Origin: Polyangiales bacterium
GTDB lineage: Bacteria > Myxococcota_A > Polyangia > Polyangiales > Houyiibacteriaceae
DNA: 64,000 bases
Reading direction: 5' to 3'
NCBI GenBank assembly: GCA_965227405.1
Contig: OZ245758.1
Span: 1,449,693 to 1,513,692, forward strand
In this document: positions 3,838 through 17,497 of the stretch, one piece after another
Position numbering within the stretch: position 1 is the first letter of the stretch
How the letters are laid out: every line of letters begins with the position of its first letter
Position numbers and translations under genes: made by a program
The notes under the pieces: generated by a model
Database searches by the model: none
The model's input: only the letters and a program-made list of their open reading frames with translations
What the model was told of the DNA's origin: nothing

Positions 3838-4611
3838 ATGCTCGCGACGACCCGGCTCGGCGACGGCGACAAGACGTTCGTGTTTTTGCACGGCGTGTTT
3901 GGCCGAGGCTCCAACTGGCGCACGATCGCTCGAAAGTTCGTCGACGCGCGGCCTGAGTACAGCGCGCTTTTGGTGGATCTTCGGCTTCACGGAGACTCGT
4001 TGGACCTGTCTCCGCCGCATACGGTCGAACGAGCTGCCCAAGATGTTCTTGCGCTCGGTTCGATTCACGGAATCTCGGGGCACTCGTTTGGCGGGAAAAT
4101 CGCCATTGAAGTGGCGCGACATACACCGCTCGAATCGTTGTGGATCTTGGATTCGATGCCGGGTCCACGACCGGATCGTCGTGGATCTGAAGCAATTTCG
4201 AAGGTGATGGACGCGTTGCGCGCCGTGGACCGGAACTTCGAGACACGCGACGCGTTCGTCCAAGCGCTCGTGGCCCAAGGGCTCGTCGAACCGATCGGTC
4301 GTTGGTTGGCCATGAGCTTGAAGCGCGGCGACTCGGGCTTTGAGAAAGTGGTCGATGTCGACGCGATCGACGGAATGCTCGACGACTACTTCGCTCTGGA
4401 TCTCTGGCCTGCACTCGAATCGCTGGAAACCGAGACGCACTTGGTGATCGCAGAACGCTCAGAGGTGTTCGATACCGATGACCGAGCTCGGGCCGCGTCG
4501 ATCACCCGAAACGGCTTCCATGTCGACCACGTCAACGCTGGCCACTGGCTGCACGTGGAAGCGCCGACAGCGCTTTTGGCGTTGATGACTGCTTCTCAAG
4601 AAAAGTCTTAA
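3838..4611 (+). CDS. alpha/beta-fold hydrolase
   Basis: HGVFGRGSNW oxyanion region, GHSFGG nucleophile elbow (GxSxG), C-terminal HVDHVNAGHWLHVEAP with catalytic His. 257 aa. Confidence 0.85.
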   Translation: MLATTRLGDGDKTFVFLHGVFGRGSNWRTIARKFVDARPEYSALLVDLRLHGDSLDLSPPHTVERAAQDVLALGSIHGISGHSFGGKIAIEVARHTPLESLWILDSMPGPRPDRRGSEAISKVMDALRAVDRNFETRDAFVQALVAQGLVEPIGRWLAMSLKRGDSGFEKVVDVDAIDGMLDDYFALDLWPALESLETETHLVIAERSEVFDTDDRARAASITRNGFHVDHVNAGHWLHVEAPTALLALMTASQEKS

Positions 4612-4694: not shown

Positions 4695-5381
4695 ATGAAA
4701 CGGACCTTGCCCCTTCTCCTTCTCAGCGCGGTCGCCTTTGCTCAAGAAGGCGGTGACGAACTCGCCGCTCCGAGTGCAGCCACCAGTGCTCATCGAGTCG
4801 CTTCGGAAGTTCAGGCGTTCTACGACCAAACCGATACGTTCTCGGCCCGCTTCACGCAGACGTACTACCACCGCCTCTACCAACGCTATCAGCGTTCAAA
4901 CGGTCGGTTCTACTTCGACAAGCCTGGTCGCATGCGCTTCGACTACGCGCAGCCCAACGGCAAGGTCATCGTGAGCGACGGAAGCCACTTCACTGCGTAC
5001 GACCCAGGTGACGAAGGTGAAGCTGGGCAATACGTAAAGGCGCCGGTCGGCGACAGCTCACTTCCGCGCGCGTTTGGTTTCCTGACCGGGCACGGACGGA
5101 TTCTCGACGACTACCGTGTGAGCCTCTTGGACTCAAACCGATATCGGTGGAGTGGTCCTGTGTTGGAGCTTCGTCCGCGTAACTCGGATCCGCGAATCCG
5201 ACGCATCCTTCTTTACGTCGATGGTGATGCCCGTCGTCCGGGTGTGGTGCACCGCATCCGAATCGACGACCACGAGGGCAACCGGAACAAGTTCGAGATG
5301 CGTCGAATGCGCTTCAACCGGGATATGTCGTCGTCACGCTTCGCGTTTAGCCCGCCGCGTGGAGCGCATCGTATCCAGTAG
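4695..5381 (+). CDS. LolA-like outer-membrane lipoprotein carrier or sorting protein, with signal peptide
   Basis: N-terminal MKRTLPLLLLSAVAFAQ signal. LolA-like segment FTQTYYHRLYQ...GRFYFDKPGRMRFDY...KVIVSDGSHFTAYDP. Confidence 0.7.
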   Translation: MKRTLPLLLLSAVAFAQEGGDELAAPSAATSAHRVASEVQAFYDQTDTFSARFTQTYYHRLYQRYQRSNGRFYFDKPGRMRFDYAQPNGKVIVSDGSHFTAYDPGDEGEAGQYVKAPVGDSSLPRAFGFLTGHGRILDDYRVSLLDSNRYRWSGPVLELRPRNSDPRIRRILLYVDGDARRPGVVHRIRIDDHEGNRNKFEMRRMRFNRDMSSSRFAFSPPRGAHRIQ

Positions 5382-5589
5382 TCATTTTGCAGCTAGTGGA
5401 TGGACTCACAGTTCTGGAGTCCATCCGTGTTCCATCGCCAGCGTTGTTCGACCAAAATGACTAGAGGTAAGGTGATGGAAACGGTCGGCGGCTCCCACTC
5501 GCCTAGTCATTTTGCTCGAACAACGCCACAACACAGCACGGATGCACACCGGTAAGAGTGAAACGAGTCGTGCACGAGCAAAATGACTA
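5379..5589. repeat. Cluster of four copies, in two inverted pairs, of the AT-rich 11-12 bp motif TAGTCATTTTGC / GCAAAATGACTA. A 23-bp inverted repeat (gcgttgttcgaccaaaatgacta ... tagtcattttgctcgaacaacgc, 1 mismatch) spans a 40-bp centre.
   Basis: Copies at about 5379-5390, 5453-5463, 5504-5515 and 5578-5589. The last copy overlaps the ATG at 5583 of the downstream gene. The AT-rich motif stands out in a ~68% GC background. Confidence 0.6.
5398..5426 (+). terminator. Perfect 10-bp stem / 9-nt loop hairpin (ggatggactc-acagttctg-gagtccatcc) 17 nt after the LolA-like stop. No U-tract.
   Basis: Read directly. The reverse complement of the left arm equals the right arm. Confidence 0.5.
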
Positions 5590-6149
5590 AGTGGGTCAGC
5601 GCCTGCGTCCTCGGCGAAGCACTCGGTCTTTCGCTCGCCGCTCTCCTCGGCGCATTCGTTTCGCGTCTGAGCGACGATGGATCCGGACTCGTCATCTTGA
5701 TGCCGATCATCGGTCTCCTTGAAGGCGCCGTCCTCGGCGCGTTTCAAGCGTGGGCACTCGGTCGCGGTCGAAAGTGGATCCTCGCTACGAGTCTCGCGAT
5801 CGGCGCGGCTTGGTTGGTGGGCGCGCTCGCGTCGACACTTGAACCACGCGTCACATCCCCACTGCTCATCCTGGGTGTCGCACTCTTGTTTGGACTCCTG
5901 GTTGGAGCTGCCGTTGGACTTGCACAAACACGCGTCGCGAATGCATCACACCATTGGTTGATCGCCAACGTTGCGGGTTGGTCGACCGGACTCGTCGCAA
6001 GCGCACTACTCAGCGAAATGGTTCCGTGGGGGCCATTCACGGCCTACGTGTTCGCGATCGAAGCACTCAAGGGAATCGCAGTGGGTCTCTGTCTCGGCCT
6101 GGTGACAGCACCGTATCGAAACCGGATCCAAGTCGCGCACCAAAACTAG
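5583..6149 (+). CDS. Hypothetical integral membrane protein (about 4-5 TM helices)
   Basis: Hydrophobic and Gly/Ala-rich throughout (LGLSLAALLGAFV, LLILGVALLFGLLVGAAVGLA). No recognisable catalytic motif. Confidence 0.5.
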   Translation: MTKWVSACVLGEALGLSLAALLGAFVSRLSDDGSGLVILMPIIGLLEGAVLGAFQAWALGRGRKWILATSLAIGAAWLVGALASTLEPRVTSPLLILGVALLFGLLVGAAVGLAQTRVANASHHWLIANVAGWSTGLVASALLSEMVPWGPFTAYVFAIEALKGIAVGLCLGLVTAPYRNRIQVAHQN

Positions 6150-6253
6150 GCAAATTCAGCCTCAAAATTCGCGACGCACCGGTCACAAGTTCTACCAATC
6201 ATTGGACTTTTACAGATCCGATGACATTTCTTTTACTTTTCTTGGCCAAATAC

Positions 6254-6332
6254 ACTGACACGTCAGTCTAGTTGAGCTAGAACCGCCCGGTTCGCGCGGA
6301 AACTGACACGTCAGTCTAGTGACCGCGCGGTC
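6254..6332. promoter_or_regulatory. Two 19-bp direct repeats (actgacacgtcagtctagt), each containing a 6-2-6 palindrome ACTGAC-N2-GTCAGT and each followed by a GC-rich palindrome (gaaccgcccggttc, gaccgcgcggtc). They lie 45-120 bp upstream of the lipid operon and are a candidate operator pair.
   Basis: Copies at about 6254-6272 and 6302-6320. Palindromes at about 6281-6294 and 6321-6332. Confidence 0.5.
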
Positions 6333-6376
6333 GCTAAATACCCGAATTCCGGGCGATTTCTGTGAGGGACGAATCG

Positions 6377-7039
6377 ATGAAGACCGCTGCTTTCTTCCGT
6401 GTGGAAGGGACACTGACCGAGCGCACCGCGATTGGCGCGTCGGCTTGGTTGGCGAGCAACGCTCAAAAGATGGGAGAGCGCGTCGCGCGCCTCGGCAACA
6501 TCGCGTTGGCTGCGCCGTTTGCGATTCTTGGCGAGCTGCAAACCGGCTCGACCGCTGCACGCATGACGTGGATGGGTCTGCGCGGAATGAGCGAAGACCG
6601 GATCGCGTTGCTCGGTGAAGAGTACTTCGAGAAGTTTCTCAAGAACGACGCGTTGGAGATCGGAACGCGCTTGTTGAAGCAAGCGAAGAAGGATGGTCGA
6701 CGCATCGTTCTGATCAGCGACAACATCGACCACGTGATCGCTCCCTTCGCAGAGGAGCTCGGTGCAGACGATTTGATCTGCAACCGACTGGAGATGCGAA
6801 AGGGTCGCGCCACCGGTGCACTCGAAGAGCCGATCATCGGCGGCAACGTCACCGGGCAGTGGGCCCGCGGCTTTGCCACCGAACACGAGATCGATTTGAT
6901 GAGCTCGTGGGCGTACGGCGCGAGCGCAGCCGACAGCTTGCTCCTCAGCGCAATCGGTCAGCCCTGCGCAGTGAATCCCGACCGTCAACTTCGTCGTCTC
7001 GCCAAGGACCACGACTGGCCCGTCGTGGAGAAGAACTGA
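6377..7039 (+). CDS. HAD-superfamily subfamily IB-like hydrolase with a degenerate motif I (FFRVEGTLT in place of the canonical DxDGT)
   Basis: RBS GAGGGA upstream of ATG 6377. HAD-IB-like GRRIVLISDNIDHV and AYGASAADSLLLS (motif IV). Both nucleophile and acid Asp positions are substituted (R, E). Stop overlaps the next start (TGATG). Confidence 0.7.
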   Translation: MKTAAFFRVEGTLTERTAIGASAWLASNAQKMGERVARLGNIALAAPFAILGELQTGSTAARMTWMGLRGMSEDRIALLGEEYFEKFLKNDALEIGTRLLKQAKKDGRRIVLISDNIDHVIAPFAEELGADDLICNRLEMRKGRATGALEEPIIGGNVTGQWARGFATEHEIDLMSSWAYGASAADSLLLSAIGQPCAVNPDRQLRRLAKDHDWPVVEKN

Positions 7040-8667
7040 TGACCACCCAGAAGCACAAGATCACCGGTATTCGCGATCGCCGCACGCTGGCGGAAACCTT
7101 CGCAGGCAAGAACCTCTTGGTCACCGGAACCTCCGGTTTCCTCGGCAAGGTCTGGCTGGGGATGGTGCTCGACTACCTGCCCGAGGTCGGCAAAATCGTG
7201 GTCGTTCTCCGCGGCAAAAAGGATCAGAGCGCCGAAGAGCGCTTCGTCCGCATCTTTGAGCGCAGCCCGGTGTTTCGCCCGCTTCGCGAACGACTTGGCC
7301 AAGAACTCCGCACCTTGATCGCCGACAAGATCGAGTTGCTTGACGGTCGTCTTACCGAGCCCTTTGCGGGCATGGATGAGAAGCGTGCTGCCGAAGTCAT
7401 GCGCGACATCGACGCCGTTGTGCACTTCGCGGGACTCACCGACTTCGAACCGGATCCCCAAGACGCCATCGACGCCAACATTCACGGCGCGTGGAACATG
7501 GCCGACCTCGCCGCCCTGAGTCGCGGCAAGCGCTACATCCACGTATCGACCACCTACGTGGCGGGTGTTGCCGACGGTCGAGTTGAAGAGTCGATCACGG
7601 CTGGCATCAGCCCCAACGGCACCGAGATCAATCCGCGCGCTGAAGTGCTGGCAATGGAGACGTTGATCCGCGCCGGCGAGACCAAGAAAGAGCGTCTGGC
7701 GATCGCGCGTGCACGCGCCGCGGAACTCGGCTTCCAGAACGTCTACACGTACACGAAGAGCCTCAGCGAGCACTTGATCGAAGAGCGCACGGACGTGAAG
7801 ACCACCACGTTCCGTCCCGCCATCGTCGAATGCGCACGCAGCTACCCCTTTGCCGGTTGGAACGAAGGCATCAACACCTCGGGTCCGCTGGTGTGGTTGC
7901 TCAGCACGCCCTTCCGCCGTTTGCCGGCCAAGAACGACATCTACTTCGATGTGGTTCCCGTCGACACTGTCGCGCGCTCGATGGTGCTCGTGGTGGGCGA
8001 TGCGCTTCGCGACGACGCGGAAGACGTCTACCAGTGCGGTTCGGGGTATCTGAACCCACTGATGATGCATCGCGCGATGGACCTGACCACGTTGGCGCTC
8101 CGTCGCACCGACGGCAGCTTTTTCACCAAGATCGATAGCTACTGCATGGACAACGCCGTCGAGCGTGAGCAGATCTTCGGCTACGCGCGGATGCGGCAAG
8201 CCAGCGCTGCACTGCGGAACACGCTTCGCAACTTGAAGCTCGAGCGCAAACTGCCGCCTTCGCTCTACGAGCGTCTCGGCGGAGACAAACTCGGCAAGAA
8301 CATCGAGTCGTTCCGCAAGACGCTTCGCGGAACGGAAAAGATGCTCGGCATGGTCGACAAGATGCTGCGCCAGTACCGGCCCTTCATCTACGACTACAGC
8401 TATCTCTTCGTCACCGAAAACCTCAAGCGAGCCAGTGCACGTTTGAGCGACGAAGACCGCGCACTCTTCGGCTTCGACGTCGAAACGATCGACTGGCGCT
8501 ATTACTGGTCGAAGGTCCAAGTCCCCGGTCTTGAGAAGTGGTCGATTCCGCTGCTCAAGGGCGAGACCGTTCCCGACGACGAGGCGTTGCCGCCCGCGTC
8601 CGACGGTGTTCGCACCAAGGGTGCGCTTCGCGAAGAGCGCAAAGAGATCCGCGCAACGGTCGCGTAG
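7039..8667 (+). CDS. Fatty acyl-CoA/ACP reductase-like protein (NAD_binding_4 'male sterility' thioester-reductase domain plus C-terminal FAR-like domain)
   Basis: Start ATG 7039 overlaps the upstream stop. LLVTGTSGFLGKVWL Rossmann GxxGxxG. YTYTKSLSEH (YxxxK). About 540 aa, typical of FAR enzymes. The track ORF from 6859 carries a spurious N-terminal extension. Confidence 0.85.
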   Translation: MTTQKHKITGIRDRRTLAETFAGKNLLVTGTSGFLGKVWLGMVLDYLPEVGKIVVVLRGKKDQSAEERFVRIFERSPVFRPLRERLGQELRTLIADKIELLDGRLTEPFAGMDEKRAAEVMRDIDAVVHFAGLTDFEPDPQDAIDANIHGAWNMADLAALSRGKRYIHVSTTYVAGVADGRVEESITAGISPNGTEINPRAEVLAMETLIRAGETKKERLAIARARAAELGFQNVYTYTKSLSEHLIEERTDVKTTTFRPAIVECARSYPFAGWNEGINTSGPLVWLLSTPFRRLPAKNDIYFDVVPVDTVARSMVLVVGDALRDDAEDVYQCGSGYLNPLMMHRAMDLTTLALRRTDGSFFTKIDSYCMDNAVEREQIFGYARMRQASAALRNTLRNLKLERKLPPSLYERLGGDKLGKNIESFRKTLRGTEKMLGMVDKMLRQYRPFIYDYSYLFVTENLKRASARLSDEDRALFGFDVETIDWRYYWSKVQVPGLEKWSIPLLKGETVPDDEALPPASDGVRTKGALREERKEIRATVA

Positions 8668-8676
8668 GGAGTCGAC

Positions 8677-9831
8677 ATGTCCGATGTAGTGTTCATCACC
8701 GGAGCGACCGGTTACCTCGGGTCGTACGTGCTCGACGCTTACCTGCGCGACACCGACAAGACCGTCGCTGTGCTTACGCGTGCGAAGAACCGCGACGAGG
8801 GTCTCGAGAAGCTGTGGAAGGCGCTGCAGCTCCACATGGACGCCGACACGTTTTGGCAGACCATCGATCGCGTTCAGATCGTCGCGGGTGACTTGCAGCA
8901 ACCCAAGCTTGGCATCGAAGACGCGACCTACGATCGGTTGGTTCAGCAGAGCGAATCGATTCTGCACATCGCTGCCTCGCTCAACCGCAAGAGCGAAAAG
9001 GCGTGTCTGAACCACAACCTCAAGGGCACGTTGTCCATGTGCAAGCTCGCTCGGGCCGCACACGACCATCACGGACTGCGTCGCTTTAGCTTTGTGTCGA
9101 CCACGGCGATTGCTGGAAAGCGCAATGCCGAAACGCTGACCGAAGACCAAGCACTCGAGTGGGATCGCTCGGACTACGACCCTTACGCGCGCACAAAGAA
9201 GTTTTGCGAGCACATGGTTGCTGAGCTTCTGCCCGACGTGGAGCGCACCATCTTTCGACCCAGCACTGTTCTCGGTGACTCGCGTCATCCGCGCAGCACC
9301 CAGTTTGAAATGGTGCAGGCGTTCAACACCGTGTTCTCGATGCCGGTGTTCCCGGTTCGTCCCGAAGCACGCATCGACATCGTCAACGCTGACTGGGTCG
9401 GTCGCGCGATGTTTGAACTGCATCGTCGTCCCGCCAAGTACGACTGCTATCACCTCTCCGGTGGCGTGGCGTCGCCGCAGGCTCGCGAGATCGCCAAGGA
9501 GATGGCCAAGGTGGGTCGTCGCGCGCCGGTGATGATTCCGCAGCTCTTGGGCGCCACGCAGTTTGCGTTCGATCAGATCGCCAGCCTGCCGCAGCGCAAC
9601 ACGGCGACCTACATCGGATCGCTGTTCAAAGTGTTCCTGCCCTACATCACCTTCGACACCGTGTTCGATAACGCACGTGCCGTCGAAGACACCGGACTGC
9701 AGCCGACGAGCTTTCTCGAGTACGGCGCGCCTTACGCCGAGTGGTGTCGCGCGCAGAAGTACCGCTTCCCCTACCAGCCTTTGCCGGCGCGACCGACGCG
9801 CGTGGCCGTCCCGACCGGAGCGAACCCGTGA
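8677..9831 (+). CDS. Second NAD_binding_4-type (thioester reductase / NAD-dependent epimerase-like) protein
   Basis: VVFITGATGYLGSYVL Rossmann motif, YARTK (YxxxK), FRPSTVLGD. 384 aa. Confidence 0.8.
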   Translation: MSDVVFITGATGYLGSYVLDAYLRDTDKTVAVLTRAKNRDEGLEKLWKALQLHMDADTFWQTIDRVQIVAGDLQQPKLGIEDATYDRLVQQSESILHIAASLNRKSEKACLNHNLKGTLSMCKLARAAHDHHGLRRFSFVSTTAIAGKRNAETLTEDQALEWDRSDYDPYARTKKFCEHMVAELLPDVERTIFRPSTVLGDSRHPRSTQFEMVQAFNTVFSMPVFPVRPEARIDIVNADWVGRAMFELHRRPAKYDCYHLSGGVASPQAREIAKEMAKVGRRAPVMIPQLLGATQFAFDQIASLPQRNTATYIGSLFKVFLPYITFDTVFDNARAVEDTGLQPTSFLEYGAPYAEWCRAQKYRFPYQPLPARPTRVAVPTGANP

Positions 9832-11573
9832 GTGAGAAGAAGAAAGAGCGGAAGGTTAAGATCTGGCGTCCAAAGGTCGAGGCTGAAGAGCCTGCTCCCA
9901 AAGAGGAAACCACCGCGATCACGCCGTCGGCACCGGCCAGTCTTGATGTGCGCGGGTTGCTCGACGACCTGCGTGCCTCCGTCGAAAAGCGCGACAAAGA
10001 AACACTCGTCGGTCTGTTCAAAGACATCGGCCGTGTTTCGTTCGACCGCATCAGCGAGTACGCCGACGCCGACCGCGCCCTGATGATCGCCATGAGCGGG
10101 TTCATCGAGGCCGCCGCAAGCCGTTACGCCATCGACCCTGGAGCACAGTGGGCTCAGGGTGAACCGCTTCGGCTACTCCTCGCTGGATATAGCGGTACGC
10201 GCAACACCGGTGCTGACGTTCGCGTCGAAGAGATGATTCGTCAGTTCCGCCATCTCTTTGGCGATGAGCATGTGGCGCTAAGCATCTTCACGCTCGATCC
10301 CGAGCTGACCAAGGGCTACTTCCGCACCGTTCGTCAGCTGGAACTGCCCAAGCTCTTCCCGAAGTTCCTCTTCGACACGATTCACGATCAGCACGCCGTC
10401 ATCGCGTGCGAGGGATCGATGTTCAAGAGCAAGTTCGCCAACGCGCTGAGCACCATGATGGTCGGCGCGATCGGTTTGGCTGCTGCCGAAGGTAAGCTGG
10501 CTGTGGGCTACGGCGGCGAAGCCGGCAAGATGGACAAGTCGCTGGCTCGCCTGGTGAAGAAGTACTGCCAGGACGCGCTGATCATCGCGCGCAACGAGAA
10601 CAGCAAGAAGATCCTGGGCGACCTCGGCGTCGCTTCGCGCAGTGGAACCGACACCGCGTGGACCTTCGATCCTGCACCGCCCGAGGTGGGTCGCAAGATC
10701 CTCATGGACCAGGGCTGGGACGGCAAAATGCCGATTCTCGCGCTGTGTCCGATCAATCCCTTCTGGTGGCCGGTCAAACCGCATGTGCGTCGCGCCGCGA
10801 TCAACGCCGCAACCGGTGTCTACAAGGACAGCCACTACGGCAGCGTCTACTTCCACAAAACCGGCTTCGACGTGGTCGAAGCACAGCACCGCTACTTGGG
10901 TTCGATCGCAACAGCCGTCGTGAAGGTGTTGTCCGAGGGCGAGCGCTTCTTCCCGGTCATGTTCGGCAGCGAACAGCTCGACCGCGAAGCCTGTGAGTCG
11001 ATCGACCGCAAGTTGGTACGTCGCTTGGGAGCGTTCGCGCCCACACGACCGGACGGCTCCAAGGGCTTCCCGATCATCGTCAGCGATGAGTACGACATGT
11101 ACCAGATGGTCAGCGCGATGCGTCAGTCCACGTACATGATCAGCAGCCGCTACCACGCGTGTGTCATGACCATGGCCGGCGGTGTTGTGTCCGGTGGCGT
11201 CACCATGGACGAACGCATTCGCAACCTGATGAAGGACCGCGGCACACCCGAGCTTGCGCTCGAGGTGGACGATCCGGATCTCTACGAGAAGACCTGCACG
11301 ATGATCCGCCACATGATCGCCAACGCGGATTCGATTCGCGAAGGCATCGATGGTTGTGTGTACGCCAACCTCGAACGCATGGGTGAGATGGGCCAGATTC
11401 TGGTCGACCACGTGCGCAAGCATCACCCGGAGTTCCCGTTCCGACCGGAGCTCGGTGAACACGGCGACCCCTGGGATCACCTGCCGACCTTGCCGCCTGC
11501 TGTGGCCGAGTTGGTGCAGCGTGTTCGTGCCCGAGGCCCCAAGGCCGTTCCGCAGTTGGAAGCACGAGCATGA
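9828..11573 (+). CDS. Polysaccharide pyruvyl transferase family (CsaB/WcaK/ExoV-like) protein with an about 100-aa N-terminal extension
   Basis: Probable GTG start at 9828 in a GTGA overlap with the upstream stop. The start is uncertain, and an internal ATG near 10080 is an alternative. LLLAGYSGTRNTGADV matches the family signature GYYGxxNxGD. C-terminal ISSRYHACVMTMAGGVVSGGV matches the conserved R-h-H C-terminal block. Confidence 0.65.
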   Translation: MSEKKKERKVKIWRPKVEAEEPAPKEETTAITPSAPASLDVRGLLDDLRASVEKRDKETLVGLFKDIGRVSFDRISEYADADRALMIAMSGFIEAAASRYAIDPGAQWAQGEPLRLLLAGYSGTRNTGADVRVEEMIRQFRHLFGDEHVALSIFTLDPELTKGYFRTVRQLELPKLFPKFLFDTIHDQHAVIACEGSMFKSKFANALSTMMVGAIGLAAAEGKLAVGYGGEAGKMDKSLARLVKKYCQDALIIARNENSKKILGDLGVASRSGTDTAWTFDPAPPEVGRKILMDQGWDGKMPILALCPINPFWWPVKPHVRRAAINAATGVYKDSHYGSVYFHKTGFDVVEAQHRYLGSIATAVVKVLSEGERFFPVMFGSEQLDREACESIDRKLVRRLGAFAPTRPDGSKGFPIIVSDEYDMYQMVSAMRQSTYMISSRYHACVMTMAGGVVSGGVTMDERIRNLMKDRGTPELALEVDDPDLYEKTCTMIRHMIANADSIREGIDGCVYANLERMGEMGQILVDHVRKHHPEFPFRPELGEHGDPWDHLPTLPPAVAELVQRVRARGPKAVPQLEARA

Positions 11574-12532
11574 CCACCAACGGAAACGGCAACGGTGTTC
11601 CGATGAGCACCCGCTTTGGCACCTGGCAGGCGCGTTTGATCGCCCGCTCGGTGGCCAAGGGTTTGCCGCGTCCGCGCAAAGGTGGAGGTCCGCGCGAGTT
11701 CGAGGGCGCCTGGCTTTCGTGGAAAGTCGTGCCCAACTCGGTGTCGGAGCACCTCGAGGTCACGCTTCATCACGAGCCATGCAATGAGATCGGAACCACC
11801 GCGCTAGGCGAGATCGAAAAGCTTGCCGCGTTTCTGACCGGAGGCGCCGGCGGTGCACGCGCGATGATCGTGCACTCCAACGTCAAGCGCGGGTTTAGTG
11901 CTGGTGCTGACTTACGCGAGCTGCACGCCAACCTGATCGCCAAGTACGACGACGGTGGACGTGGGCTTCGCAACAAGCTGGCGATCGCGACCGAGGTCCG
12001 CGGGTTCATCGACCGGATTCACGCGGCCTTCGATGCCATCGACACCGCACCGATCACCACGATTGCTGCCACACACGGTTTCGTGTTCGGCGGTGGTTTT
12101 GAACTCGCGTTGACCTGCGACGTGATCGTCGCGGAGAAGAGCACGCGCTTTGCGTTCCCCGAACTTCGTCTTGGGTTGGTGCCTGGCTTTGGCGGCATCC
12201 CCCGCTTGAAGCGCGACTTGGGCAACGCGGTGGTCCGCGATCTTCTGCTCACAGGACGTAGCGTCAGCGCCAAACGTGCGCACGAAGTGGGGCTTGTTTC
12301 CCAAGTGGTTGCACGGGGTTCCGGGCTGGACGTGGCCCGCAAAGTGGCCGAACAAGCATCGCGTTTCGACCCGCAGACCACCGCGCTTGCCAAGCGTTTC
12401 ACCAAACCTCTTCCGCGCGAAGAACTCGAGCGCGAGAAGGATCTTTTCATCGAGATGATGGGCTCCCCGGTTGTGGAAGCCGCACTCACCAAGTTTGTCG
12501 AGAGCGACGACGTTCGCCCTTACCTGCCCTGA
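11570..12532 (+). CDS. Enoyl-CoA hydratase/isomerase (crotonase-fold) protein
   Basis: ATGA overlap with the upstream stop. FSAGADLREL and ATHGFVFGGGFELALTCD crotonase signatures. Confidence 0.85.
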   Translation: MTTNGNGNGVPMSTRFGTWQARLIARSVAKGLPRPRKGGGPREFEGAWLSWKVVPNSVSEHLEVTLHHEPCNEIGTTALGEIEKLAAFLTGGAGGARAMIVHSNVKRGFSAGADLRELHANLIAKYDDGGRGLRNKLAIATEVRGFIDRIHAAFDAIDTAPITTIAATHGFVFGGGFELALTCDVIVAEKSTRFAFPELRLGLVPGFGGIPRLKRDLGNAVVRDLLLTGRSVSAKRAHEVGLVSQVVARGSGLDVARKVAEQASRFDPQTTALAKRFTKPLPREELEREKDLFIEMMGSPVVEAALTKFVESDDVRPYLP

Positions 12533-12540
12533 GAACAGAC

Positions 12541-12777
12541 ATGCAACGCGAAGAACTGATCAAGAAGCTGATTCAACTGGCGGCCAAGCGCTTCGAGCGC
12601 GGCGACGACCTTTCAGGCGCCGACGATTTCTTTGAGCGACTGGGTATCGACTCGTTCCAGGCGATGGAACTGATGACCGACCTCGAAGAAGAACTCGACG
12701 TCGAGATTCCGGACTACGAGCTGCAGGGCGTCAACACGTTCGAGAAGCTCGCCGACGTCATCGCACCGCGGTTGTGA
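12541..12777 (+). CDS. Acyl carrier protein
   Basis: 78 aa, acidic. LGIDSFQAMEL contains the phosphopantetheine-attachment Ser (DSL/DSF motif). Confidence 0.85.
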   Translation: MQREELIKKLIQLAAKRFERGDDLSGADDFFERLGIDSFQAMELMTDLEEELDVEIPDYELQGVNTFEKLADVIAPRL

Positions 12778-12781
12778 AGTC

Positions 12782-14488
12782 ATGATCCCGCCTGAACGAT
12801 ACAACTCGGTTGGCGAGCTGCTGCGCGACGCGTGCATCACGTACAAGACCGAAACGGCTTTGCTCGAGTACGACCGCAAGAACGAGAAGGCGTGTCTCTC
12901 GTACCTGGATGTAAAGCGCCAAGGCGAGCGACTTGCTCGACGGCTTCAGGATGCCGGCGTGGGTGCGGGCGACCGCGTGGCGATCGTAATGAGCAACCAG
13001 TCCAAGTGGCTGATCGCCGCCTACGCGATTCTCTATCGCGGCGCTGTGCTGGTTCCGCTGGACTACAAGCTCACCGGCCCCGAGCTGGAAAGCCTGCTGC
13101 AGCACGCGAAACCGAAGGTTTTGATCACCGAGTTCGCCTCCTGGCGAACCATGAAAAACATCGAAGAGCTCGAGTGTTTGAAGATCGTCAGCGAGATGCC
13201 CGACGGGACGGAAGGCACCTTCGAAGCCTGGGATGCGATGCCCGACACGCCGGGTGAGTTCGTGCCTCGACAGCGCAGCGACCAAGCGACGCTGGTGTAC
13301 AGCTCCGGAACCGGCGGTCAGCCCAAGGGCTGCATGCTCACGCATGACAACTACCTGGAGCAGTACCGCACTCTGATTCAACTCTTTCCGTTCAAGGTTG
13401 GGGATCGCTACTTCTCGATCCTGCCAACCAACCACGCGATCGACTTCATGGTCGGATTCGTGGGTCCCTTTGCATGCGGTGCTACTGTGGTGCACCAGCG
13501 TAGCCTTCGTCCGGATCTGATCCGTTGGGTGATGACCAAAAAGAAGATCACGCACATGGCTGTCGTGCCGCTGATCCTCGAAGCGTTCGAGCGGGCGATT
13601 CGAGAGAACCTGGACAAGAAGAACGACGTCATTCAGGTGGCGTTCGAACACGCCAAGCGACTCAATGCTGCGCTGACGTTGCAGAAGCCGCGACGCGGTG
13701 TGAGCCGTCGCTTGATGAAGCCGGTGCTCAATGGCATCGGTCCGCGCCTTAAGATGCTCTTTGTCGGCGGTGCTTTCGTCGATCCCGATCGTGCGCAGTT
13801 CTTCTACGACGTCGGGCTTCCCGTCGTGATTGGCTACGGATTGACCGAAGCCTGCACGGTCTTAACCGTCAATGATCTCAGGCCTTTCCGCTCGGACTCG
13901 GTCGGTCGTCCACTCGAGGGTGTCGAGATCGAAATCCGCAATGCGGACGACAAAGGTGTCGGCGAAGTGTGGGTCAAGAGCCGCACAGTGTTCGCCGGTT
14001 ACCTCGACGAGCCAGAGCTGACCGCCGAAGTTCTTCAAGACGGATGGCTGCGCACCGGTGACCTCGGTTGGCGCGATCCAAGTGGTCACCTTCACCTCGT
14101 CGGTCGCAGCAAGAACATGATCGTCACGGCCGGTGGTAAGAACATCTACCCCGAAGACATCGAGATCGCGTTCGAAGGTGTCGACTGCGAAGAGCTTGTC
14201 GTGTTTGCGTCCGGCTACGTGTGGCCTGCGAGTGGCGGCAAGGAGCTGACCAAGGAATCGCTCTTTGCCGTGGTGCGTGGCAAAGACGGCTCGGTCACCG
14301 ACGACGTGCTCGCTGACCTTCGTCAGCGCAACCACAAGTTGCCCGACTTCAAGCGTGTGGCCGGTGTGCTCGATTGGGACGACGCGTTTCCGCGCACCGC
14401 ATCGATGAAGGTGAAACGCGGCATCCTGGCCGAACAGATTCGTGAGAAGGCCAATGTCGACGCCATTCGGAGGATCGCGCTCGGATGA
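12782..14488 (+). CDS. AMP-dependent synthetase/ligase (fatty acyl-AMP/CoA/ACP ligase)
   Basis: LVYSSGTGGQPKGCMLTH AMP-binding motif I. GYGLTE and GWLRTGDLG motifs. 568 aa. Confidence 0.9.
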   Translation: MIPPERYNSVGELLRDACITYKTETALLEYDRKNEKACLSYLDVKRQGERLARRLQDAGVGAGDRVAIVMSNQSKWLIAAYAILYRGAVLVPLDYKLTGPELESLLQHAKPKVLITEFASWRTMKNIEELECLKIVSEMPDGTEGTFEAWDAMPDTPGEFVPRQRSDQATLVYSSGTGGQPKGCMLTHDNYLEQYRTLIQLFPFKVGDRYFSILPTNHAIDFMVGFVGPFACGATVVHQRSLRPDLIRWVMTKKKITHMAVVPLILEAFERAIRENLDKKNDVIQVAFEHAKRLNAALTLQKPRRGVSRRLMKPVLNGIGPRLKMLFVGGAFVDPDRAQFFYDVGLPVVIGYGLTEACTVLTVNDLRPFRSDSVGRPLEGVEIEIRNADDKGVGEVWVKSRTVFAGYLDEPELTAEVLQDGWLRTGDLGWRDPSGHLHLVGRSKNMIVTAGGKNIYPEDIEIAFEGVDCEELVVFASGYVWPASGGKELTKESLFAVVRGKDGSVTDDVLADLRQRNHKLPDFKRVAGVLDWDDAFPRTASMKVKRGILAEQIREKANVDAIRRIALG

Positions 14489-15387
14489 GCGACAAGACCA
14501 CCGTGATTGTGAACGGCGCCGCGGGTGGCGGACGTTGTCGTGAAGCGGCCCAAGGTGCGCTGAGTCGGCTTCGTGCGCTCGGCATCGAAGCGGACGTACA
14601 CTACACGGAGCGAGCCGGACACGCCTCGGAACTAGCTAAAAATGCTTACAATTCTGGATGTCGCGAGCTCGTTTCGGTGGGTGGGGACGGAACCACGTAC
14701 GAAGTGGTCAACGGACTCTTTCCGCGGCCGGCGGGACATGACGATCCCGTTCGGCTCGGCATCTTGCCCTTGGGTACCGGCAACTCGTTCTTGCGCGACT
14801 TCAATGTGATGAACACGAGTGACGCATTGGATGCGCTTACACGACGTCGTGCACGAAGCATCGACGTGGTTCGCGTGAAGCACTCCACGGGAGTGTTGCA
14901 CTACATCAACTTGCTCACGATCGGTTTCGTCACGAACGCCGGTGATCTGACCAACCGACGCTTCAAGCCCTTCGGCGAAGCCGGCTACCTGATGGCCGCG
15001 ATGGTCTGCATCGCGCGTCTGAAGAACTCGAGCGATCCGATCCGCATCGACGACGGAGATATCGACGCACGTCCGGCACCGTTCTTGGTGTTCTCGAACA
15101 GCCAGTTCACCGGGGGTTCGTTTCACATCGCTCCGCATGCAGATCCCACCGACGGTGAGATCGATGTCATCCGCGCTGTGCCGATGAACCGTGGTGCGTT
15201 CGTGAAGAACCTACTGGCTGTCTACAAAGGCAAGCACGTTGAAGATCCGCGCGTGGAAGAGCGTCGAGCCAAGAAGGTGACGTTCCAAAGCCCACGCGAG
15301 CACTTGGTGATGCTCGACGGAGAGATTTTGCCGCTGACGCTTGAGTCGCTGGAAGTGATGCCGAGCGCCTTGGAGGTTTGGGCATGA
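14485..15387 (+). CDS. Diacylglycerol-kinase catalytic-domain lipid kinase (YegS/BmrU-like)
   Basis: ATGA overlap. VIVNGAAGGGR and VSVGGDGTTYEVVNG (GGDGT) motifs. Confidence 0.8.
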   Translation: MSDKTTVIVNGAAGGGRCREAAQGALSRLRALGIEADVHYTERAGHASELAKNAYNSGCRELVSVGGDGTTYEVVNGLFPRPAGHDDPVRLGILPLGTGNSFLRDFNVMNTSDALDALTRRRARSIDVVRVKHSTGVLHYINLLTIGFVTNAGDLTNRRFKPFGEAGYLMAAMVCIARLKNSSDPIRIDDGDIDARPAPFLVFSNSQFTGGSFHIAPHADPTDGEIDVIRAVPMNRGAFVKNLLAVYKGKHVEDPRVEERRAKKVTFQSPREHLVMLDGEILPLTLESLEVMPSALEVWA

Positions 15388-16247
15388 GTACCGCCGCAAA
15401 GCCTGCTGGAACCGAGAAAAAGCTCGATCCGAACAACCCCGCTCATGCCTCGCATATTGGCGACTGGCGCGAGTGGCGGCCGAGTTTGGTCGACCGCGCA
15501 CTCAGTGGCTTGTGTTGGGGAACCGCAGTGTCGTGGTTGGTGGGATGGACCAACGTCCTGACGCCGATGAACTACATCTTCGGTGCGCACAAGATCCCAG
15601 TGCATCGACTGAGTCAGTTCTTCTCGCGTGGATTGGTCGCGTCCACGTTTTCGTCGTGGAAGGCCTGGGTGCATCCCGATGTGCGTGACGACGAGCAGTA
15701 CATTTTCTGCCAGAACCACATCAACCACTTCGACTTCATCACGATGTATCCCGCCACCCCGCACTACAAGCAGGGGCTCGAGCTGGAGACGCACTTCAAG
15801 TACCCCGTGTACGGCCAGTTCATGAGTAGTCGAGGTACGGTCCCGGTTCCGGCGAATCGCGACAAGCGCTTCGATGCGGTGCGCGAAGGCATCCGCACGG
15901 AGCTTGAGGAAGGCCGAAGCATTCTGGCGTTTCCTGAGGGCACGCGGACATTGAGCGGTCGCGTCGGACCGTTTCGGTCGGGTGTGTTTCGCGTGGCGCG
16001 CGATGTCGGCGCAAAGGTTGCCCCCACCGCTGTGGTCGGGATGTACGACGTGATGCGCAAGGGTTCGCTGATGTTGCGGCCTTTCGGTGATGTCCGCGTG
16101 TTCATCGACAAACCCGTTGATTTCACGGGTGTTTCCGACGACGAGCTACCCGCCAAGATCGACGAGGTTCGCAACGCGATCGTCCGTCGTGTCGACGACT
16201 ATTTCGAGGAGAAGCAGTCATGCCAAGCACCGAGGAAGCGCGGATGA
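15384..16247 (+). CDS. 1-acyl-sn-glycerol-3-phosphate acyltransferase family (PlsC/AGPAT-like) protein
   Basis: ATGA overlap with the kinase stop. NHINHFD (HX4D catalytic motif) and AFPEGTR (motif III). Confidence 0.85.
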   Translation: MSTAAKPAGTEKKLDPNNPAHASHIGDWREWRPSLVDRALSGLCWGTAVSWLVGWTNVLTPMNYIFGAHKIPVHRLSQFFSRGLVASTFSSWKAWVHPDVRDDEQYIFCQNHINHFDFITMYPATPHYKQGLELETHFKYPVYGQFMSSRGTVPVPANRDKRFDAVREGIRTELEEGRSILAFPEGTRTLSGRVGPFRSGVFRVARDVGAKVAPTAVVGMYDVMRKGSLMLRPFGDVRVFIDKPVDFTGVSDDELPAKIDEVRNAIVRRVDDYFEEKQSCQAPRKRG

Positions 16248-16870
16248 GTTCCGTGGATCGTCGTACGGAGCGCGCGACGCGTAAGCGTCGTGATCGCCGT
16301 AAGGCGATCCTACAGGCCGCCCGTCACGTGTTTGCGGAGAAGGGATTTCACCGCACGCACGTCAGCGACATCATCGAAGCGGCGAACATCGCACGCGGCA
16401 CGTTCTACCTGTACTTCGAGTCGAAGAACGCGATCTTTCTGGAGCTGCTCGAGGGTCTGATCGGCGAGGTGCGCGAGAGTATCGTCGGCGTGGATACCAA
16501 GGAAGGCGCACCTCCCGTGCAGCTTCAGCTCGCGCATACATTGCGGCGCGTGTTGGCCACGGTGGTCGAGAACCGGGATCTGACGCGTATTTTGGTGCGT
16601 GAGGCCGTGGGTCTGGGCGAAGACGTCGATGCGCGACTCAACACGTTCTACACGAACTTGTTGGAGTACATCCGGCAGGCTCTGGACAACGGGCAAGAGA
16701 TGGGGATTCTGCGCGAGAGCATGGATACGCATCTCGCATCACTCTGTGTGCTGGGAACGATCAAGTCGTTCATGGAGCAGCTGGTGATGGACGAAGACGG
16801 ATTGGGTGATGACGTCGACCGATTAGTGGTGGCGGTGCTCGACTTTAATCTTCGAGGGTTGCTGAAGTAG
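16244..16870 (+). CDS. TetR/AcrR-family transcriptional regulator
   Basis: HTH RKAILQAARHVFAEKGFHRTHVSDIIEAANIARGTFYLYFESK. ATG 16244 overlaps the AGPAT stop (ATGA). The track offers an alternative start at 16220. Confidence 0.85.
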   Translation: MSSVDRRTERATRKRRDRRKAILQAARHVFAEKGFHRTHVSDIIEAANIARGTFYLYFESKNAIFLELLEGLIGEVRESIVGVDTKEGAPPVQLQLAHTLRRVLATVVENRDLTRILVREAVGLGEDVDARLNTFYTNLLEYIRQALDNGQEMGILRESMDTHLASLCVLGTIKSFMEQLVMDEDGLGDDVDRLVVAVLDFNLRGLLK

Positions 16871-16918
16871 TTTCGGTTTCGGTTTCGGTTTCGGTTTCGG
16901 TTTCGGTTTCGGTTTCGG
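16871..16918. repeat. (TTTCGG)x8 perfect hexanucleotide microsatellite immediately after the TetR stop
   Basis: Read directly: tttcgg repeated 8 times, then gttcgggg. Confidence 0.9.
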
Positions 16919-17243
16919 GTTCGGGGAATTGGGGCCCCGAGGTCGAGCGCAGGAAGGGGGGCATCCTCCTCTCACCGTCGCTGTGTTTGCGTCGTCCGCC
17001 TTCTGTAAGCGCTGCGTCTTTCGCTGCGCCTGAGAGTCGTCAACCCCCGCATCCTACGCTTCCCTCGGGGGTCGTTGGTTCCAACGCACTCCGTCGCGGC
17101 TCCAGATCGCTGCCGGGATCACCGAACACCGCTTGTGTGATCAATGCGCGTCGTCGTCCACTGCTCCGCAGTGTCGCCGCCGCGAATTCGGAGCCGCCCC
17201 GCTGGGCGGCAGTTGCAACGTCGACTGCCGTCGTCCTTCAACC

Positions 17244-17497
17244 GCAATCGCTGTCGCTGCCGCTGTCGCTGTCGCGATCGGCCTTCGCTGTCGCAGTCGC
17301 GATCGCAATCGCCATCGCAGTCGCAGTCGCGATCACAATCGCCATCGCCTTCGCAATCGCCTTCGCAATCGCAGTCGCGATCACAATCGCCATCGCAATC
17401 GCCATCGCAGTCGCCTTCGCCTTCGCTTTCTCCGTCGCTGTCGCCGTCGCTGTCGCGGTCGCAGTCAAAGCAGTCAAAGTTGCGATCGCAGTCGAAG
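17244..17497. repeat. About 250-bp degenerate hexanucleotide array (GCNATC/GCNGTC)n. All six frames are open and dipeptide-repetitive: (AI/AV)n, (SQ/SR/SP)n, (DC/DG/DS)n.
   Basis: Read directly (gcaatcgctgtcgctgcc...gcgatcgcaatcgccatcgcagtcgcagtcgcgatcacaatc...). Track ORFs 17119..17520(-), 17144..17584(+) and 16987..17535(+) all derive from it. Confidence 0.85.

Follow-up and report, generated by a model that had tools for sequence, protein, structure and literature searches.

The ether-lipid operon elbABCDE of Myxococcus xanthus (MIBiG BGC0000871) includes a gene for the HAD-like phosphohydrolase ElbB (MXAN_1530; PMC9131029, PMC13012113). Alongside it, elbC specifies a protein of unknown function, elbD a multidomain FAR-ACS-ACP-AGPAT protein (FAR, fatty-acyl reductase; ACS, acyl-CoA synthetase; ACP, acyl carrier protein) and elbE a member of the NAD-dependent epimerase/dehydratase family (PMC9131029, PMC13012113, PMC9426513). 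No role has been firmly assigned to ElbB, ElbC or ElbE, and for ElbD even the reductase and acyltransferase steps are not settled (PMC9131029). The elbB phenotype has been put down to polar effects. In plants, the sn-2 glycerol-3-phosphate acyltransferases GPAT5 and GPAT7 keep an inactive HAD-type phosphatase domain and yield lysophosphatidic acid instead of monoacylglycerol, GPAT4, GPAT6 and GPAT8 being active (PMC11127019); dead HAD domains in lipid enzymes are therefore known in principle. Here we describe a 64,000-nucleotide stretch of the genome of a Polyangiales bacterium (contig OZ245758.1, positions 1,449,693 to 1,513,692; hereafter the window), in which a lipid gene cluster opens with the gene for a 220-residue HAD-like protein, followed by the gene for a eukaryote-type fatty-acyl reductase, FAR1. 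We propose, with a probability of roughly 0.6, that this protein is a catalytically dead relative of ElbB kept as a non-catalytic partner of FAR1.

HAD phosphatases are defined by a motif I of the form D-x-D-x-T/V, in which the first Asp is the nucleophile and the Asp two residues later the general acid/base. The window protein instead reads F-F-R8-V-E10-G-T, against the canonical h-h-D-x-D-G-T, with Arg8 (codon 6398-6400) at the position of the nucleophile and Glu10 (codon 6404-6406) at that of the second Asp. Its open reading frame (ORF) was confirmed as real, and a Shine-Dalgarno-like GAGGGA lies ~8 nt 5' of the ATG at 6377. This start is preferred over a GTG at 6362, which would add five residues, because homologues (M-x-x-AAFFRVEG) begin two to five residues ahead of AAFFRVEG. 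The N-terminus of the protein is MKTAAFFRVEGTLT, and the stretches ISDNIDHV and AYGASAADSLLLS were found as well. In the profile alignment, the columns holding R8 and E10 are D and D in 34/34 canonical relatives. Misalignment of motif I was considered and ruled out, three independent profile alignments being concordant with the strand assignment in an AlphaFold2 (AF2) model, where the first beta strand spans residues 4-8 (predicted local distance difference test score, pLDDT, 93).

The fold itself is that of HAD superfamily subfamily IB, in which a Rossmann-like core receives an insertion behind motif I, the helical C1 cap. Residues 6-187 match PF12710 on profile positions 2-185 (E 1.5e-20), and residues 4-204 match TIGR01490 on positions 1-201 of 202, at 78.5 bits and below the curated cutoff of 98.3; the generic subfamily model TIGR01488 is the sole NCBIfam model whose cutoff the protein passes (48.2 vs 45). 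The AF2 model, built from a 55-sequence alignment, has a mean pLDDT of 88.9 and a predicted TM score (pTM) of 0.85. A Foldseek search of the PDB returned 3fvv as the best match (TM 0.81-0.84), followed by phosphoserine phosphatase (PSP) and SerB (TM 0.70-0.75, E 1e-12). An earlier reading made from the letters of the window and their translations (the sequence-only reading) had proposed this fold and the loss of both motif I Asp residues, and had asked whether the segment is motif I at all; the profiles and the model bear it out on each point.

The damage extends beyond motif I. With residue equivalences taken from a phmmer alignment to the PSP of M. jannaschii (1f5s/1l7m), the motif II Ser (PSP S99) is kept as S114, within ISDNIDHV, and the second Asp of motif IV (D171) as D186, while the motif III Lys (K144) is replaced by T159 and the first motif IV Asp (D167) by A182. 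Four of the six catalytic positions (D, D, K, D) are thus replaced, and S114 and D186 alone remain; in PSP terms, the lost positions include the nucleophile, two Mg2+ ligands and the phosphate-binding Lys. Compared with canonical HAD-IB proteins (PSP, SerB, TIGR01490 'HAD-SF-IB-hyp1' and 3fvv), the window protein shares the core and C1 cap, the motif II Ser and the last motif IV Asp, but not the nucleophile Asp, the second Asp, the motif III Lys or the first motif IV Asp. Motif IV reads GASAAD, AYGASAADSLLLS amounting to half a motif IV only, and the sequence-only reading erred in taking the HAD motifs downstream of motif I as retained. Among characterised catalytic HAD members, we know of none that does without the motif I Asp as nucleophile. 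Judged by these residues, Asp-based, Mg2+-dependent phosphoryl transfer should not be possible for the window protein, and the activity is presumably absent.

The same residues are missing across a whole clade. We compared the window protein with its 120 best database homologues (53-98% identity), all of which come from metagenomes or metagenome-assembled genomes (MAGs) and, where named, belong to Myxococcota, Polyangiales, Myxococcales or Sandaracinus. Of those that have the N-terminus, 118/118 share R8 and E10. No sequence has Lys at position 159 or Asp at position 182, and S114 and D186 are found in 120/121 and 121/121 sequences. At a greater distance, 1.84 billion representatives at 50% identity were searched with a profile, which gave 139 clusters at E <= 1e-30, and the best 150 representatives at 50% identity were used to compare clades. 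In this set, 88 have an R/K-x-E/D motif I, the mark of a type (RxE) that also lacks the Lys and has x-D at motif IV (~65 scorable at all three sites), and 34 have D-x-D (the DxD type), 25 of them with the full D-x-D, Lys and D-D complement. The two combinations, RE with no Lys and xD, and DD with Lys and DD, are nearly mutually exclusive. Average-linkage (UPGMA) clustering of 111 near-full-length sequences sets 76 RxE-type against 35 DxD-type sequences, a clustering rather than a phylogeny, which is consistent with a single origin of the RxE clade. A genome-contig scan found six close loci, none from a cultured organism, and a source look-up of ten RxE representatives returned MAGs or metagenomes only.

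Position by position, the contrast between the two clades is sharp at the former active site. The DxD clade has Asp at positions 8 and 10 in 100% of sequences, where the RxE clade has R in 95% (otherwise K) and E in 97% (otherwise D), respectively. Position 159 is K in 91% of the DxD clade and 0% of the RxE clade, and position 182 is D in 85% and 0%. Further shifts affect position 12 (T in 94% against 24%), cap position 57 (R in 94% against 37%) and position 114 (S/T in 100% against 85%), position 115 changes from G (85%) to D, E or Q in most RxE sequences, and position 186 is D in both (97% and 98%). Conversely, R35 (95%), R62, D74 (98%), R75 (100%) and C197 are fixed in the RxE clade and variable in the DxD clade. 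This pattern points to a relaxation of catalytic constraint accompanied by the gain of a new constraint, mostly in the cap helices. Residue 148 (codon 6818-6820), in the A-T-G-R-L hairpin, is a peculiarity of the window copy: it is Ala here and Arg in 115/121 close homologues, and a minority of more distant family members likewise read G-A-L at the hairpin.

When the window gene is paired with the orthologues in five homologue loci (L001-L005), dN/dS by the Nei-Gojobori method is 0.13-0.21, and 0.22-0.34 for the neighbouring gene FAR2 in the identical pairs; all these values are approximate because dS is about 1. The HAD-like gene is under purifying selection and still functional. A phosphatase in decay, one mutated in this strain only, or an artefact of sequencing, in each case without a function, would account for the absence of catalytic residues and for nothing further. 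This reading is refuted on several grounds: the recurrence of R8 and E10 in all 118 homologues rules out a sequencing error or a strain-specific mutation, the dN/dS values rule out decay, new residues have become invariant, gene order is kept down to 39% identity, and fusion to a FAR-type protein occurs in four separate sequence clusters. A canonical DxDGT was found only in the sister, ElbB-like clade, whose members are not orthologues. Catalytic residues lost while purifying selection and a conserved context are retained would mark the protein as a pseudoenzyme. The sequence-only reading had suggested as much; with D, D, K and D lost together clade-wide under purifying selection, the case has become stronger than it was when first made.

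What has been conserved together with this remodelled protein is its association with FAR1, a link that the sequence-only reading had missed along with the relationship to ElbB. The stop codon of the HAD-like gene overlaps the ATG of FAR1 (TGATG at 7037-7041), an arrangement that predicts translational coupling of the two genes. A FAR1 orthologue lies directly 3' of the HAD-like gene in 12/12 RxE loci with downstream sequence (L001-L005, L009-L015), and this adjacency holds in subclades only 39-41% identical to the window protein; the loci of P0146 and P0181 are on short contigs, and FAR1 is downstream in both. In one locus (L012), the two genes have become one. Its 798-residue product, P0240, is a natural HAD-like/FAR1 fusion in which residues 29-178 align with residues 5-154 of the window HAD-like protein (39% identity) and residues 248-765 with FAR1 (32% identity), and the fusion gene is followed by FAR2 and then by a pyruvyl-transferase-like gene, as in the window. 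Three further 50%-identity clusters (P0210, P0230 and P0242) join a HAD-like domain to a FAR-type NAD_binding_4 domain, bringing the fusion clusters to at least four. In the fusions, the C-terminal third of the HAD fold, with motifs III and IV, is absent or unrecognisable; W-R-V-E-G persists, as do the cap and the A-T-G-R-L hairpin. Taken as Rosetta-stone evidence, these architectures suggest that the HAD-like module works with FAR1 and that the phosphatase site is not what matters.

HAD-IB modules have also been joined to another lipid-biosynthetic enzyme, in the HAD-IB/PlsC acyltransferase fusions P0250 and P0236. Motif I of P0250 is D-x-D, and P0236, which has no N-terminal region in the alignment, has an unreadable motif I; the RxE type fuses to FAR instead. 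The PlsC acyltransferase was considered as the canonical partner of the RxE module and is not supported, all RxE-type fusions in this set being to FAR and PlsC fusions having been seen only outside the RxE type.

The closest canonical relatives of the RxE profile are HAD proteins encoded in clusters of the elbB-elbC-elbD-elbE type. One of them, P0343, is encoded in the complete genome of Bradymonas sediminis (CP030032.1; L020), where a HAD protein with an intact site (DVDGT ... K ... DSGSD) is followed by a Lar_N protein of 528 aa, a 1,619-aa protein with NAD_binding_4, AMP-binding, PP-binding and Acyltransferase domains, and an NAD-epimerase. The locus of P0166 (L016) encodes a DxD-type HAD protein, a Lar_N protein and a NAD_binding_4, Sterile and AMP-binding protein cut by the contig end, and that of P0201 (L019) encodes TetR, a DxD-type HAD protein and a Lar_N protein, with a palindrome at the HAD start. 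We regard the three clusters as elb-type because their architecture matches the published elbB-elbC-elbD-elbE order. The window protein is 37.5% identical to P0343 over 216 residues (E 2e-44), 35-37.5% to P0166 and P0343 and 31% to P0201 (E 2e-37 to 2e-44). FAR1 is 36% identical to the FAR domain of the Bradymonas ElbD-like protein, and the synthetase and acyltransferase of the window are about 30% (30.7% and 30.1%) and 26% identical to ElbD-like ACS and acyltransferase domains. A search based on P0166 reached Bradymonadales isolates, with no Myxococcus among the matches listed. The genes at the 'ElbC' position in the three clusters encode the lactate-racemase N-terminal domain (Lar_N, PF09861; L016 2520-4109, L019 1881-2279, L020 10838-12424), and ElbC is described in the reviews examined only as a protein of unknown function.

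The Bradymonas ElbB-like protein and the window protein are alike in HAD-IB fold and length and share the signatures SEDR-x-x-LGEE-x-FE, CNRLE...ATG-x-L and PCAVNPD...DWP. Their clusters are alike in having the HAD gene at the head and in encoding FAR, acyl-CoA/ACP synthetase, ACP, acyltransferase and NAD-epimerase-type functions, and the elb-type locus L019 has a TetR gene and an operator palindrome of the window type as well. They differ in that the ElbB-like clade has D-x-D-G-T, S/T-G, K and D-x-x-x-D, whereas in the window clade motif I is R-x-E and both the Lys and the first motif IV Asp are missing, and in that ElbB is followed by Lar_N (ElbC) and a single ElbD of ~1,600 aa, whereas the window HAD-like gene abuts FAR1 directly. 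The window contains no Lar_N homologue and no multidomain ElbD after the HAD-like gene, FAR, ACS, ACP and acyltransferase being separate genes. A pyruvyl-transferase-like gene in the window was entertained as a counterpart of ElbC and ruled out, the ElbC position being held by Lar_N in ElbB-like clusters and no Lar_N homologue existing in the window. The cluster is best described, on the strength of these comparisons, as elb-related, with ElbD split, ElbC apparently absent, a kinase, a crotonase and a pyruvyl-transferase-like gene added, and the ElbB-type phosphatase probably dead.

Under our proposal, the HAD-IB fold has been retained while replacement of the nucleophile, the general acid/base, the phosphate-binding Lys and one Mg2+ ligand would have abolished phosphoryl transfer, leaving a non-phosphatase partner subunit of the eukaryote-type FAR1, to which it may bind physically. 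The cap patch formed by R35, R62, D74 and R75, together with R8 and E10, would be the likely contact, an interface or a site for an anion or for ACP, and the protein would probably serve in docking, positioning or regulating FAR1, or else keep hold of an anionic substrate or carrier. R8 could supply the positive charge that Mg2+ and Lys formerly brought, and its pairing partner may be E10, the acidic residue at position 115 or D186. In such a pathway, a phosphorylated lipid intermediate that ElbB-type enzymes would dephosphorylate may stay intact, in line with the presence of a DAGK-family kinase in the operon and in parallel with plant GPAT5 and GPAT7. The plant case resembles the present one as a HAD-type module in lipid assembly with one clade lacking the active-site residues and a sister clade intact; the dead version is retained there and the product stays phosphorylated, an effect that can only be conjectured for the product of the window pathway. 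The two differ in that the plant phosphatase domain is fused to an acyltransferase, whereas here a fatty-acyl reductase is the partner and the HAD-like protein is mostly a separate polypeptide. The plant substitutions also differ from RxE, and we claim no common origin.

Several points weigh against a dead subunit of FAR1. The loss of all activity is deduced from residue identity alone, the link to ElbB from cluster architecture in other Myxococcota and in metagenomes, and adjacency and fusion indicate a functional linkage without proving a stable complex. The window copy, with A148, may also differ from its relatives in ligand binding. Moreover, the invariance of R8 and E10 is what one would expect of catalytic residues, and both are kept in fusions without motif IV, which would also fit a new catalytic or ligand-binding role. 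The remodelled site could thus still be enzymatic through a non-canonical chemistry, with Glu10 as nucleophile or general base and Arg8 stabilising an anionic transition state or replacing the metal, and with an acyl-phosphate, a thioester (acyl-CoA or acyl-ACP) or a phospho-lipid feeding or following FAR1 as the substrate. This would explain why R8 and E10 are conserved at a catalytic level across ~88 clusters at 50% identity and survive in HAD-FAR fusions that have lost the C-terminal third of the fold, why D74, R75, R35 and N136 are fixed, and why an acidic or amide residue occupies position 115 where canonical relatives have Gly; relocated catalytic residues are described for some predicted 'dead' enzymes in the review literature on pseudoenzymes (PMC10211241). 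Set against these points are the Mg2+ ligand positions (D8, D182) and phosphate-binding Lys that are gone, the motif II Ser/Thr that is dispensable in 15% of the clade, and the partial dismantling of the Rossmann core in the fusions, which sits badly with an intact active site. Neither a family model nor a paper describing such chemistry was found, and, as far as we know, characterised catalytic HAD members share the motif I Asp nucleophile. We consider a new enzyme of this kind unlikely.

The clade-specific residues admit another interpretation, which overlaps with a non-catalytic partner of FAR1 and to which we give slightly less weight than to a new enzyme: a ligand-sensing or substrate-presenting module that binds a phosphorylated molecule without turnover and gates or channels FAR1 and the acyltransferase. 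Glycerol-3-phosphate, an acceptor of the dihydroxyacetone phosphate (DHAP) type, a phospho-lipid head group or the phosphopantetheine arm of acyl-ACP would be candidate ligands. The new constraint falls mostly on cap-helix Arg residues (R35, R62 and R75, with R38 and R69 common), which would suit an anionic ligand or the very acidic ACP of the cluster; an Arg at the nucleophile position would keep a positive charge where Mg2+ and Lys bind phosphate, and the operon is shared with ACP, ACS, a lipid kinase and an acyltransferase. Yet the case is purely inferential, and two residues speak against it: cap Arg57, the likely binder of the substrate phosphate in the active clade, is much reduced in the RxE clade and is Gly in the window protein, and R148 is Ala.

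Beyond a dead ElbB relative that merely accompanies FAR1, one may envisage, speculatively, that the RxE module has been neofunctionalised and that a eukaryote-type fatty-acyl reductase now depends on it, as a subunit or N-terminal domain, in a hitherto uncharacterised 'split-Elb' lipid pathway of Polyangia-like Myxococcota. The remodelled site of the module (R8, E10, acidic 115, R35, D74 and R75) would then catalyse a new reaction or hold a phosphorylated or ACP-bound intermediate. If so, the module would decide between phosphorylated ether or alkyl lipids and the neutral products expected where ElbB is active. A clade-wide, 'phosphatase-dead' ElbB relative tied to a reductase would argue for a role of the HAD protein with the reductase that is independent of phosphatase chemistry, and the active DxD clusters and dead RxE clusters with a lipid kinase would offer a natural contrast for finding which intermediate is dephosphorylated. 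The protein would also join the few HAD-fold pseudoenzymes on record, as a case from a bacterial lipid pathway that parallels plant GPAT5 and GPAT7.

Public annotation does not reflect any of this. Family members are named 'phosphoserine phosphatase' (JGI) or 'HAD-IB family phosphatase', and no NCBIfam model captures the RxE clade. The family is thus systematically named for a phosphatase activity whose residues it lacks; judged by those residues, the JGI name is almost certainly wrong. The literature searched goes no further on ElbB than the term 'HAD-like phosphohydrolase' and does not analyse its motifs; a description of a HAD-FAR fusion was not found there.

The features of the cluster are collected in Table 1. 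The pattern ACTGAC-NN-GTCAGT occurs twice in the window, against 0.16 occurrences expected by chance; both copies have the exact form ACTGAC-AC-GTCAGT and each lies inside a longer repeat, ACTGACACGTCAGTCTAG. The palindrome recurs 40-170 bp 5' of the HAD-like gene in ten loci (L001-L006, L009-L011 and L019) and is probably the operator for the TetR regulator of the cluster, which would bind there. A sigma-70 promoter scan of 6100-6400 gave no match, with a consensus that may not suit Myxococcota. Gene order is kept in related MAG contigs and in homologue loci at 53-56% identity. With the palindrome just upstream and the order conserved, the HAD-like gene is the first gene of a regulated unit, in keeping with its earlier placement at the operon head.

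Table 1. Coordinates of the HAD-like gene, its putative operator and the genes of the lipid cluster, numbered from the first nucleotide of the window.
Feature	Position	Strand	Residues, evidence or remark
Operator-like palindrome ACTGAC-AC-GTCAGT, copy 1	6254..6267	+	5' of HAD-like gene
Operator-like palindrome, copy 2	6302..6315	+	48 bp from copy 1
Predicted HAD-IB-fold pseudo-phosphatase	6377..7039	+	R8, E10, S114 (6716-6718), T159 (6851-6853), A182 (6920-6922), D186 (6932-6934)
FAR1 fatty-acyl reductase (NAD_binding_4 + Sterile)	7039..8667	+	PF07993 E 2e-45; PF03015
FAR2 short thioester-reductase / NAD-epimerase-like (ElbE/ElbA-type by Pfam composition)	8677..9831	+	Profiles, synteny
Polysaccharide-pyruvyl-transferase-like protein	9741..11573	+	PF04230 E 1e-7; CsaB-like below cutoff
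Enoyl-CoA hydratase/isomerase-family protein (crotonase)	11570..12532	+	Profile
Acyl carrier protein, 78 aa, DSF phosphopantetheine-site motif	12541..12777	+	
AMP-binding acyl-CoA/ACP synthetase	12782..14488	+	Profile
DAGK/YegS-family lipid kinase	14485..15387	+	Profile
PlsC-type acyltransferase	15378..16247	+	Profile
TetR-family regulator, last gene of the cluster	16220..16870	+	Conserved in L003, L005, L009

The ACP gene, which is below the length of the default ORF listing, lies between the crotonase and synthetase genes, and PP-binding genes occupy the equivalent position in L009 and L010. The pyruvyl-transferase-like gene (~500-600 aa) follows FAR2 in every locus that is long enough, including the fusion locus L012. 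Its start is uncertain, the longest ORF overlapping FAR2 by 90 nt, and its product has no counterpart in the ElbBCDE-type cluster examined. In L010, the locus of P0097, a second AMP-binding gene (14977-16605) lies between the pyruvyl-transferase-like gene and the crotonase gene.

Upstream of the operon, on the same (+) strand, are genes for an alpha/beta-hydrolase (3838-4611), a LolA-like protein (4695-5381) and a small multi-pass membrane protein (5583-6149). They recur 5' of the HAD-like gene in several related loci, L003, L005, L006, L009 and L013, and the conserved neighbourhood may, to judge from this synteny, reach beyond the TetR-controlled unit. At the other end, a tandem repeat of GTTTCG (9.2 copies, 97% matches) lies at 16870-16924, just 3' of the TetR gene. 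A second array, with 6-nt and 30-nt periods, covers ~220 bp at 17243-17466 and gives rise to low-complexity ORFs in several frames (Ala-Ile-Ala, Asp-Cys-Asp and Ser-Gln-Ser-Pro runs), which are probably non-coding.

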